Below the pieces are notes generated by a model. It had not been told where the DNA came from. It saw only the letters and a list, made by a program, of their open reading frames with translations, and did not search any database. This document shows, piece after piece, positions 4,475 to 15,715 of a DNA stretch of 19,970 bases. The DNA comes from a virus. The DNA is taken from UHGV virus genome UHGV-0369446. One strand, written 5' to 3'. How positions within the stretch are numbered: the first letter of the stretch is position 1; each line of letters opens with the position of its first letter. Both the position numbers and the translations under genes were made by a program.

Positions 4475-4870
4475 GTCTTACCCCCAATAAGGGGATTTGC
4501 TCTATTTAATTAGGAATAAGGTCGATTACTGATAGAACAAATCCAGGCTACTGTGTTTAGTAATCAGATTTGTTCGTGACCGATATGCACGGGCAAAACG
4601 GCAGGAGGTTGTTAGCGCGACCTCCTGCCACCCGCTTTCACGAAGGTCATGTGTAGAAGGCCGCAGCATAACTATCACTGATGAATTCAGGATAGCCAGT
4701 GGCTACGGCTCAGTTTGGGTTGTGCTGTTGCTGGGCGGCGATGACGCCTGTACGCATTTGGTGATCCGGTTCTGCTTCCGGCATTCGCTTAATTCAGCAC
4801 AACGGAAAGAGCACTCGGTGCATTTAAGACAAGCTCCATAAGGGAGAATGCTCTTACCTGTTACACAGAT

Positions 4871-12457: not shown

Positions 12458-13206
12458 TGTGCTCAACAGTGATCTCACAACTAGGTTTCGAATGCCATCC
12501 AATAGGCAAGACCTTGAGAATTATCAGTCCATTCACTTACTGTGATGATGGAGAGCATGTCGGTGCCTTTATCCGTGAAGTCAATGGTAGGTATTTAGTT
12601 AGTGACAGATGCGATGCCTTAATGAATATGGAGGCAAGAGGGATCTCGCTTACCAAAAAACGACTTGATGAGATACGACAATTACTGCTTAAAGAAGGCG
12701 CAGAACTCAATGCTCGAGGAGAAATCATTGCTTGGGCAACAGAAAAGGATGTCGGTGCGATTACATCGAACATAATTAGAGCTGGTATACTCGCATCAAC
12801 TTTGTCGTTAGACTGGTATCAGCCAGTTCAAGCTGAAAAGTTTGAAAGTATGGTTATTGATTATCTATATCACACAGAGCTTAGAGACGCACTTTCTCTT
12901 CGTGAAAACGTATATGGCTTGAGTGGACATCAAATTACCGTCCCTGTAACAATAAAAACCGACATACCTAAATACGTTTTTACATCAAGCGTGAAACACG
13001 GAGGAAGCTGGAATAGTGCTTACTCATTGCTTGGGAAACTAATTGATCTTAAAGCTTCAAGTGAGGAGTATAACAACAGATTTGTTGTTATAGACAGCGA
13101 AGCAATTGGTGATCAAATGCAACAACTCTCCTTACTCTTCCATGAATCAAGCCAAGTTCTACCATTCTCCAAAAGAGAGACTTGGGTTAAGAGACTTGCA
13201 GCATAA
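12454..13206 (+). CDS. hypothetical protein B (250 aa) of a two-gene operon in the rexB position; function unknown
   Basis: ORF starting ATGATG and overlapping the gene A stop. AT-rich. No membrane-spanning segments evident, unlike RexB. Followed directly by a strong intrinsic terminator. Confidence 0.65.
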   Translation: MMCSTVISQLGFECHPIGKTLRIISPFTYCDDGEHVGAFIREVNGRYLVSDRCDALMNMEARGISLTKKRLDEIRQLLLKEGAELNARGEIIAWATEKDVGAITSNIIRAGILASTLSLDWYQPVQAEKFESMVIDYLYHTELRDALSLRENVYGLSGHQITVPVTIKTDIPKYVFTSSVKHGGSWNSAYSLLGKLIDLKASSEEYNNRFVVIDSEAIGDQMQQLSLLFHESSQVLPFSKRETWVKRLAA

Positions 13207-13546: not shown

Positions 13547-13642
13547 TCACCCAACCACATAAGCTGTGGGATGCAATGCCGAAGCAACCGTCTCAGGAGG
13601 AGCTTCGAGATTGCATCGCCAAAGTTTATTCGGGAGGAATCC

Positions 13643-13915
13643 ATGTCCAGAAAAACAGAATTTAAAGGCACCGCAGCTTCTCGCCGTAGAGCTCGTCGCG
13701 CAAATCTGCAAAGTCAGGAGGCGATCAGCTCCGACAAGCTACACAGGCCAACCCCTTCACGAGTGGTCTTGCAATGCAAGCTCAAACCAGCAATGAGAGC
13801 AGAAGTGATAACTCTGACAACGTTGACCAGAAAATATGAAGGTTCAACTTGTCTTCCGAACGTAGCTCTTTACGCGGCAGGCTACCGGAAATCAAAACAA
13901 CTGACGGCGAGATGA
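13643..13915 (+). CDS. N: N-family antitermination protein
   Basis: Start placed at the ATG preceded by GGGAGG (MSRKTEFKGTAASRRRARRANLQSQ...). It has an N-terminal arginine-rich motif like N proteins and is the first gene after pL/nutL. The sequence differs from lambda N and resembles non-lambda N variants (phage 21 / P22 gp24 type) as far as I recall. Confidence 0.7.
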   Translation: MSRKTEFKGTAASRRRARRANLQSQEAISSDKLHRPTPSRVVLQCKLKPAMRAEVITLTTLTRKYEGSTCLPNVALYAAGYRKSKQLTAR

Positions 13916-14513: not shown

Positions 14514-14656
14514 CGGCGTTTCTCTTTTGCTCTCTGTAGGGGTGAATAGAGTTTATCCGATTTCTCGTTGTAGGGGTACACGAGAACCACCGAGCCTGAT
14601 GTGGTTAAAAGACAGGCACAATCTTTACTACCGCAATCCACTCTTTAAGGTGATAT

Positions 14657-14743
14657 ATGGAAGAAGAATTTGAAGAGTTCGAAGAGCATCCTCAAGATGT
14701 GATGGAACAATACCAGGACTATCCGTATGACTACGACTATTGA
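14657..14743 (+). CDS. small acidic ORF (28 aa), lambda orf28-like
   Basis: Manual translation gives MEEEFEEFEEHPQDVMEQYQDYPYDYDY. Its 3' end overlaps the ral start. Position matches lambda orf28 as I recall; below the ORF-track size cutoff. Confidence 0.45.
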   Translation: MEEEFEEFEEHPQDVMEQYQDYPYDYDY

Positions 14744-14927
14744 TACAAATCAATGGTGTGGACAATTCAAACGATGCAATGGATGCAAGCTGCAATCGGA
14801 ATGCATGGTTAAGCCTGAAGAAATGTTTCCTGTAATGGAAGATGGGAAATATGTCGATAAATGGGCAATACGAACGACGGCAATGATTGCCAGAGAACTT
14901 GGTAAACAGAACAACAAAGCTGCCTGA
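14727..14927 (+). CDS. ral: Ral restriction-alleviation protein
   Basis: 66-aa ORF MTTTIDTNQWCGQFKRCNGCKLQSECMVKPEEMFPVMEDGKYVDKWAIRTTAMIARELGKQNNKAA, matching lambda Ral from memory. Confidence 0.9.
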   Translation: MTTTIDTNQWCGQFKRCNGCKLQSECMVKPEEMFPVMEDGKYVDKWAIRTTAMIARELGKQNNKAA

Positions 14928-15063
14928 TAGTGGCCTTTATTTTTGGCATAAATAACAGAATAAACACTGCACTGTGTATTCATTCCAACGAGTGAATACA
15001 CGGAGCAATGTCGCTCGTAACTAAACAGGAGCCGACTTGTTCTGATTATTGGAAATCTTCTTT

Positions 15064-15090
15064 GCCCTCCAGTGTGAGGGCGATTTTTTA
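15064..15090 (+). terminator. intrinsic terminator (tL2-like) between ral and ea10
   Basis: GCCCTC-CAGTGT-GAGGGC hairpin followed by GATTTTTTA. Confidence 0.55.
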
Positions 15091-15109
15091 TCTATGAGGA
15101 TATGAATAG

Positions 15110-15478
15110 ATGTCAAACATCAAAAAATACATCATTGATTACGACTGGAAAGCATCAATAGAAATTGAAATTGACCATGACGTAATGACAGAGGAAAAAC
15201 TTCACCAGATTAATAATTTCTGGTCAGACTCTGAATACCGACTCAATAAACACGGCTCTGTATTAAATGCTGTATTAATCATGCTGGCGCAACATGCTCT
15301 GCTTATAGCAATTTCAAGCGACTTAAATGCATATGGTGTTGTGTGTGAGTTCGACTGGAATGATGGAAATGGTCAGGAAGGATGGCCTCCAATGGATGGT
15401 AGTGAAGGAATAAGAATTACCGATATCGATACATCAGGAATATTTGATTCAGATGATATGACTATCAAGGCCGCCTGA
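15110..15478 (+). CDS. ea10: Ea10-like early protein
   Basis: 122-aa ORF in the ea10 position between ral and cIII. Same length as lambda Ea10. Sequence identity is recalled only loosely. Confidence 0.6.
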   Translation: MSNIKKYIIDYDWKASIEIEIDHDVMTEEKLHQINNFWSDSEYRLNKHGSVLNAVLIMLAQHALLIAISSDLNAYGVVCEFDWNDGNGQEGWPPMDGSEGIRITDIDTSGIFDSDDMTIKAA

Positions 15479-15550
15479 GCGCGGCGTTACCGCATACCAA
15501 TTACGCTTCACTCGAGGCGTTTTTCGTTATGTATAAATAAGGAGCACACC

Positions 15551-15715
15551 ATGCAATATGCCATTGCAGGGTGGCCTGTTGCTGGCTGCCCTTCCGAATC
15601 TTTACTTGAACGAATCACCCGTAAATTACGTGACGGATGGAAACGCCTTATCGACATACTTAATCAGCCAGGAGTCCCAAAAAATGGATCAAACAATTAT
15701 GGCTATCCAGACTAA
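15551..15715 (+). CDS. cIII: CIII (inhibitor of FtsH, stabilises CII)
   Basis: Manual translation gives [54 protein letters not shown] (54 aa), matching lambda CIII from memory. Below the ORF-track cutoff and in a different frame from the listed 89-aa ORF. Confidence 0.85.
   Translation: MQYAIAGWPVAGCPSESLLERITRKLRDGWKRLIDILNQPGVPKNGSNNYGYPD

Follow-up and report, generated by a model that had tools for sequence, protein, structure and literature searches.

The perfect 9-bp inverted repeat in the intergenic region between ral and ea10 of this lambda-like phage belongs, to judge from comparison of its many copies, to a structure that the early leftward (pL) transcript forms as RNA and that is selected together with PreS, the small RNA encoded immediately downstream. 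Support is good both for the hairpin and for its association with PreS. As to what the hairpin does, we lean towards the view that it is an RNase III site resembling R1.1 of phage T7, which would release PreS from the pL transcript. We see an even chance that PreS is neither a terminated primary transcript nor an RNase E product, and that RNase III cuts it from pL RNA at an R1.1-like signal of its own, which accompanies it in every case. Coordinates throughout refer to the window, by which we mean the whole 19,970-nucleotide stretch of the viral genome UHGV-0369446 that was analysed.

A small RNA between ral and ea10

The plus strand of the window carries a lambda-like early left operon, with ral and ea10 followed by cIII, kil, gam and bet, and positions 14600-15500 share 98.8% identity with phage lambda and 99.9% with phage ev207. 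An earlier, sequence-only reading of this DNA had placed the repeat between ral and ea10, about 60 nt upstream of a tL2-like terminator. Identification of the flanking genes bears out the first placement, and a stem at 15062-15083 followed by a T run bears out the second. The main features of the region are as follows.

14727-14927, plus strand: ral, the upstream gene in this phage; other genes hold this position in related phages
15003-15090, plus strand: LPR1/PreS, an Hfq-dependent sRNA of 88 nt, placed by mapping of published primers and deletion homology arms
15037-15052, plus strand: PreS seed region, from the published M1 mutation site; an 18-nt seed deletion begins at 15038
15062-15089, plus strand: tL2a intrinsic terminator (stem at 15062-15083, then a T run), which supplies the 3' end for PreS
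15110-15478, plus strand: ea10, the downstream gene in this phage, by gene identification

The 60 nt that separate the palindrome from the terminator, together with the terminator itself, are LPR1/PreS. An Hfq-bound sRNA between ral and ea10 was described as LPR1 and later renamed PreS (Silverman et al., 2024 preprint, bioRxiv 10.1101/2024.10.31.621285). According to the accessible text of that preprint, PreS gives a northern band of about 88 nt, is trimmed to about 68 nt and ends at tL2a; its production is restricted to the lytic cycle and active pL; and it activates translation of the host dnaN and boosts phage replication. The same accessible text makes no mention of the hairpin, of RNase III or of PreS biogenesis. 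The primers and deletion arms in its Table S5 map to 15003-15090, exactly 88 nt, and the PreS 5' end used here is this cloning and deletion coordinate taken together with the ~88-nt northern band, rather than an end mapped at nucleotide resolution. With its last nucleotide at 15001, the palindrome's right arm stops 1 nt short of this 5' end. The palindrome as a whole (14974-15001) thus lies outside mature PreS (15003-15090), and the full PreS deletion, as given in the accessible part of the preprint, retains it.

A promoter scan found no promoter-like site upstream of PreS. Because PreS is pL-dependent and has no such site, its 5' end must arise by processing of the pL transcript. A promoter within the palindrome itself was considered and rejected: there is no sigma-70-like site and no -10-like hexamer common to both alleles of the hairpin described below, and expression tracks pL. 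Searching the window against Rfam returned the cIII thermoregulator only, with matches around the palindrome at chance level (rliE, E = 0.29; RyhB, E = 0.39), and the PreS family is absent from Rfam 15. The EHEC prophage sRNAs EcOnc, HnrS, AsxR and AgvB were also considered and set aside, as their place is in the late region and not at this locus.

Several other features of the operon deserve a brief record. The Rfam match to the cIII thermoregulator element (Lambda_thermo) lies at 15538-15596, is full length at 88.5 bits, and overlaps the start of cIII. Just after ea10 and before cIII, at 15503-15520, there is a terminator-like hairpin with a T run, whose position we take to be that of lambda tL2b. 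The ORF at the gene N position (13571-13915, 114 aa, MQCRSNRLRR...) does not resemble lambda N, and in some relatives the upstream homology to lambda breaks off near 14633, so that the window looks to be a lambda-like hybrid whose immunity/N region is of another type.

The inverted repeat is part of a longer stem-loop

The repeat itself is exactly as the sequence-only reading had described it, with arms GTGTATTCA and TGAATACAC fully complementary across a 10-nt spacing. The elements of the hairpin are listed here.

14974-14982, plus strand: left arm of the repeat, GTGTATTCA, from an inverted-repeat search
14993-15001, plus strand: right arm of the repeat, TGAATACAC, from the same search
14972-15003, plus strand: full RNA stem-loop by folding, in which a tetraloop caps an unbroken run of 14 pairs, two being G.U
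14986-14989, plus strand: tetraloop CAAC; the loop sequence differs among copies
14964-14973, plus strand: 5' strand of an imperfect lower stem, pairing with 15002-15011 and holding the lambda-type tandem CACTG CACTG

The repeat is longer than first noted, extending to 22-nt arms (14964-14985 and 14990-15011) with 82% complementarity, and in plus-strand RNA 14972-14985 pairs contiguously with 14990-15003 to give the 14 pairs. The 48-nt segment 14964-15011 folds at -24.2 kcal/mol, against -8.4 +/- 2.6 for shuffled sequences (z = -6.1), and none of 200 shuffles was equally stable. The perfect 9-bp repeat by itself is at chance level and not significant, and its meaning comes from its context: dinucleotide-shuffled windows are expected to hold 0.88 perfect 9-bp inverted repeats with a 3-12 nt loop, 55% of shuffles hold at least one, and the window has four such loci (at least 9 bp, short loop) against about 0.9 expected from shuffles. 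The three other perfect palindromes lie at 2703-2728 (TACATACCCG..CGGGTATGTA), 4600-4629 (GGCAGGAGGT..ACCTCCTGCC) and 13069-13092 (TATAACAACA-GATT-TGTTGTTATA). A search for the same palindrome elsewhere had been suggested by the sequence-only reading. Run within the window, it finds no further exact copy of the half-site beyond the two arms themselves, and at up to one mismatch there are 9 half-site matches where 4.2 are expected.

The lower stem varies among copies. Lambda-type copies carry the tandem CACTG CACTG at 14965-14974 and 933W-type copies a single CACTG, and the extra 5 nt give lambda-type copies a longer lower stem that reaches PreS nucleotides 5-9. The lower-stem partner 15003-15011 is the sole part of the helix that belongs to PreS.

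The hairpin travels with PreS

We collected 182 copies of PreS from IMG/VR plus lambda and Sf6, using the PreS sequence rather than the hairpin as the anchor. A hairpin lies directly before PreS in all of them (182/182), and the sequences on its left belong to 12 unrelated classes. Breaks in homology cluster on the left side at 14932-34, 14958-59 and 14969 and on the right at 15087-89, with no breakpoint cluster between hairpin and PreS in the 182 copies. From hairpin to terminator, the block is 95-100% identical across lambdoid, Stx-converting, Shigella and P22-like phages with differing neighbour genes. Of 5426 complete E. coli genomes, 2239 (~41%) also carry the module formed by hairpin and PreS (14964-15091), with up to 6 copies per genome, and in the ten E. 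coli records listed no annotated feature underlies the match. The sequence-only reading had held that a lack of conservation among related phages would speak against a function; the element proves to be present in every related copy found.

Part of this block already has a name. In the Sf6 GenBank record the equivalent of 14969-15081, hairpin plus PreS, is labelled 'bsq4; boundary sequence', and the HK542 record carries a 'boundary sequence 4'. With its 12 left-flank classes and with breakpoints at its edges, the block is indeed a conserved stretch at the junction of non-homologous modules.

Two observations on neighbouring sequence belong here. A 29-codon ORF (MSLVTKQEPTCSDYWKSSLPSSVRAIFYL) overlapping PreS spans 15008-15097 and is closely preceded by GGAG at 15002-15005; the 3' end of the ORF spans the mosaic breakpoint at 15087-89, and neither its C-terminus nor its stop codon is conserved. 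Because its end crosses that breakpoint, the ORF is probably non-coding. Upstream of the hairpin, 14951-14963 (AAUAACAGAAUAA) is complementary to the PreS seed at 15037-15050, and the helix between AAUAACAGAAUAA and the seed, which encloses the hairpin, is predicted to sequester the seed in the lambda-type precursor with a pairing probability of 0.88. As a conserved feature this long-range 'anti-seed' helix was rejected, with pairing probabilities of only 0.02-0.54 in the other 11 left-flank classes.

Two alleles retain the helix

The hairpin exists as two alleles: type A, that of the window, and type B, found in 66 copies as TATAGCAGATT-TACG-AGTCTGCTATG. The flanks CGAATAAGC and GAGCAATG and an apical ACGAGT are identical in both, so the alleles are homologous and neither is a foreign insertion. 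Between them, eight consecutive stem pairs are changed on both sides with pairing kept, and three apical pairs are unchanged; the apical U-A and U.G pairs are invariant in 182/182 copies across both alleles. With the alleles aligned in register 15-16 of 16 pairs are canonical, and with the partner strand slid 3-10 are, in an alignment from a covariance model that was built on one allele and is biased towards structure. Pairs were counted on plus-strand rows only, since the covariance-model alignment also gathered minus-strand matches, and MAFFT alignments of the alleles were left out, their left arms being out of structural register. When the arms are replaced at random, about 0.1% of trials give a stem of at least 11 bp.

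Among copies of one allele the stem hardly varies. The loops differ, with CAAC, CAAT and CAGC in type A and TACG, TGCG and CACG in type B. The plus-strand fold is more stable than the minus-strand fold in 24/24 variants, an advantage that comes from the G.U pairs. The compensatory change between the two alleles and this G.U asymmetry favouring the plus strand together support an RNA hairpin on the pL transcript, one of the options that the sequence-only reading had raised for the palindrome.

A third allele was sought with the pattern WNGAGCAATGTCGCTCG. In viral contigs it has 16 matches, one of which is a point variant of type A (L170) and the other 15 of which are without PreS. In genome contigs this 15-base pattern, too short for a search on that scale, has 120 matches, none enterobacterial among the titles listed and none with PreS in the loci checked.

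A candidate RNase III processing signal

The substrate rules of E. coli RNase III have been worked out on minimal substrates derived from R1.1 (Pertzev and Nicholson 2006, PMC1540722). These need a helix of 11 bp from cleavage site to tetraloop; with one pair fewer, reactivity falls 50-fold. The distal box is a U-A pair followed by a U.G pair, with the U.G stringently required. Binding or catalysis is blocked when proximal-box positions 2 and 4 hold G-C or C-G pairs, and off-consensus substitutions at pb1 or pb3 weaken binding of the minimal substrate. The product has a 2-nt 3' overhang. Placed on the window's hairpin, these rules single out the following positions.

14983-14984, plus strand: distal-box-like pairs, 5' half (U14984-A14991 as db1, U14983.G14992 as db2), from the RNase III rules and the allele comparison
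14991-14992, plus strand: distal-box-like pairs, 3' half (A, G), from the allele comparison
14975-14978, plus strand: proximal-box-equivalent pairs, 5' half (pb4 U-A, pb3 G-C, pb2 U-A, pb1 A-U), paired with 14997-15000
14997-15000, plus strand: proximal-box-equivalent pairs, 3' half, from the RNase III rules
15002-15003, plus strand: predicted RNase III scissile bond in the 3' arm, placed 13 nt past the tetraloop as in T7 R1.1 and equal to the PreS 5' end

Above the predicted cut, the window allele has the 11-bp helix (14975-14985 with 14990-15000), and type B has 10 formable pairs between the predicted cut and the loop. In both alleles the tenth pair from the cut is U-A and the ninth is U.G. 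At pb2 and pb4, neither allele carries an antideterminant: both pairs are U-A in the window and both are A-U in type B. Where the consensus at pb1 and pb3 is G-C and A-U, the window has A-U and G-C and is off-consensus, and type B has the consensus G-C at pb1 with U-A at pb3. Outside lambda-type copies the lower stem comprises about 5 positions, well below the ~22 bp that RNase III can contact. If 11 pairs are counted down from the tetraloop and 2 nt are allowed for the overhang, the 3'-arm cut falls at 15002/15003, which is the PreS 5' end used by its discoverers; the predicted bond thus coincides with an RNA end that is itself taken from primer and deletion coordinates. Among the plus-strand hairpins of the window, only the one adjacent to PreS has RNase III-type features. 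The one further hairpin of the window to combine at least 10 pairs with a loop-adjacent, distal-box-like U-A/U.G lies on the minus strand, at 1874-1902.

These features suggest a mechanism in which the palindrome would form the upper stem of a stem-loop in the pL transcript that acts as a T7 R1.1-type signal for host RNase III. The enzyme would dock on the U-A/U.G distal box beside the tetraloop and on the A/U-rich proximal-box pairs 11 bp below it, and would cut the 3' arm at 15002/15003 and possibly the 5' arm at 14974/14975. The cut in the 3' arm would create the 5'-monophosphate end of the 88-nt PreS, whose 3' end is made by tL2a, and would part PreS from the upstream message, which would keep or lose the hairpin according to whether one strand or two were cut. 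Among the specific mechanisms that the sequence-only reading had entertained, an RNase III site is the best supported, through the box rules, the match to T7 R1.1 and the fact that the predicted cut falls on an RNA 5' end already known; that RNase III cleaves at 15002/15003 is what we infer.

Alternative explanations

The strongest alternative is that the hairpin does function as RNA and in connection with PreS, but as a boundary or insulator and not as an RNase III site: it might let PreS fold independently, guide a single-strand endonuclease such as RNase E, or cap the upstream 3' end against 3' exonucleases. Structural conservation and linkage to PreS fit this explanation equally. The trimming of PreS to ~68 nt reported in the accessible preprint text falls in an A/U-rich, single-stranded stretch and looks like the work of RNase E, and many sRNAs that derive from longer transcripts are made by RNase E, according to the accessible text of a study of Campylobacter (PMC8687705). 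At the junction itself the picture differs. There is almost no single-stranded RNA there, since 0-1 nt separates the hairpin from the first helix of PreS and the junction is spanned by lower-stem pairs, and the sequence, CACG followed by GAGC, is not A/U-rich. A cut of RNase E type guided by the hairpin is possible and fits poorly. A boundary function also leaves the invariant U-A/U.G unexplained amid a stem that has been replaced around it, and a hairpin that served the upstream gene should move with that gene, but this one moves with PreS. We therefore regard a boundary or insulator as unlikely, and favour the RNase III site.

It is a good deal less probable that the palindrome is functionless and has been kept through proximity to a conserved sRNA or as the recombination boundary sequence bsq4. 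The annotations in Sf6 and HK542 speak for such an explanation, as do the chance expectation for a lone 9-bp palindrome and the near-invariance of the stem within each allele, which is uninformative on structure. The comparison between alleles is what tells against it: type B alters both arms yet retains the helix, an outcome so rare among random replacements; the shared flanks and apical ACGAGT mark the two as homologous alleles; and it is the loops that vary while the stems do not.

The sequence-only reading had also offered a protein-binding palindrome. The window allele does have perfect 9-bp dyad symmetry as DNA, which a dimeric phage or host protein could recognise. The helix, however, runs through G.T positions that can pair only as plus-strand RNA, and the U.G position is kept in both alleles; type B has another sequence and is an imperfect palindrome as DNA; and the window holds no second copy of the half-site. 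A DNA-level site is on these grounds very improbable. Least credible of all is a terminator or pause signal of the tL2 cluster, the remaining option of the sequence-only reading, for although a stable, G/C-poor hairpin does lie 60 nt upstream of tL2a, it is followed by GGAGCAATG with no T run, its A/U-rich stem running into GGAGCAAUG lacks the form of an intrinsic terminator and is absent from the terminator scan, and tL2a has a separate hairpin of its own (15062-15083) with the body of PreS between. We accordingly reject DNA binding, termination and pure hitch-hiking as explanations.

Discussion

Our analysis points to a processing signal of a known kind, the R1.1 type, that would here be newly placed to release a phage sRNA. 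The prediction of the 5' end to a single nucleotide offers a handle on PreS biogenesis in that it names an enzyme, a set of base pairs and a bond. RNase III modulates lambda N and cIII expression. If the proposal is right, PreS would join N and cIII as the third product of the lambda pL operon under RNase III control; confirmation would tie PreS output to RNase III activity, and would therefore be relevant to the balance between lysis and lysogeny. One lambdoid 'boundary sequence' at the least would then be a self-contained cassette of processing signal, sRNA and terminator. The block of hairpin and PreS accounts for the near-identity of this intergenic region across mosaic lambdoid, Stx-converting and P22-like phages, and in genome annotation the hairpin, the sRNA and the terminator are best handled as one unit.

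The closest known counterpart is R1.1, which lies between T7 genes 1 and 1.1 and whose minimal form is uR1.1, a resemblance that we noticed post hoc. In the T7 genome it reads AAGGTCATTC-GCAA-GAGTGGCCTTTAT up to the cut and GATTG after it; the window reads GTGTATTCATTC-CAAC-GAGTGAATACACG and then, past the predicted cut, GAGCA. Both are tetraloop hairpins located between functional units of a phage early polycistronic transcript. The five pairs next to the tetraloop, among them the U-A/U.G distal box, are the same in the two (CAUUC/GAGUG), and positions 2 and 4 of the proximal box hold A/U pairs in each. In R1.1 the 3'-arm cut comes 13 nt after the tetraloop, and in the window the PreS 5' end lies at this same distance of 13 nt. 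The two differ in the sequence of the middle and proximal stem, where the window allele is off-consensus at pb1 and pb3, and in the cut region, which is an internal loop in R1.1 and is base-paired around the predicted cut in the window; because of this pairing, both strands might be cut in the window. They differ too in the downstream product, which is an mRNA for R1.1 and would be an sRNA here, cleavage being predicted.

Within lambda, the element occupies the LPR1/PreS locus itself, and the terminator noted in the sequence-only reading is the PreS terminator tL2a. It resembles bsq4 in being a block common to phages with unrelated neighbouring genes, and departs from the boundary-sequence idea in that the latter describes a recombination linker without a product, whereas here the block comprises an sRNA and a structured element before it. 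RNase III sites are known in the lambda pL operon in the N leader, in the cIII mRNA and at sib, where they control mRNA translation or decay. An older mapping of pL processing sites was reportedly made by Hyman and Honigman in 1986. The hairpin described here would share with the known sites the transcript, the host enzyme and a regulatory outcome, and would differ from them in that they control mRNAs, whereas here the predicted outcome is release of an sRNA.

Beyond lambda, RNase III rather than RNase E cuts an sRNA from a longer precursor in at least two described cases, a Campylobacter sRNA (PMC8687705) and Salmonella ManS (PMC11745405), according to the accessible text of the two reports. 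Those sRNAs come from other organisms and are unrelated in sequence; PreS, by contrast, is phage-encoded, and the role of the enzyme in releasing it is a predicted one.
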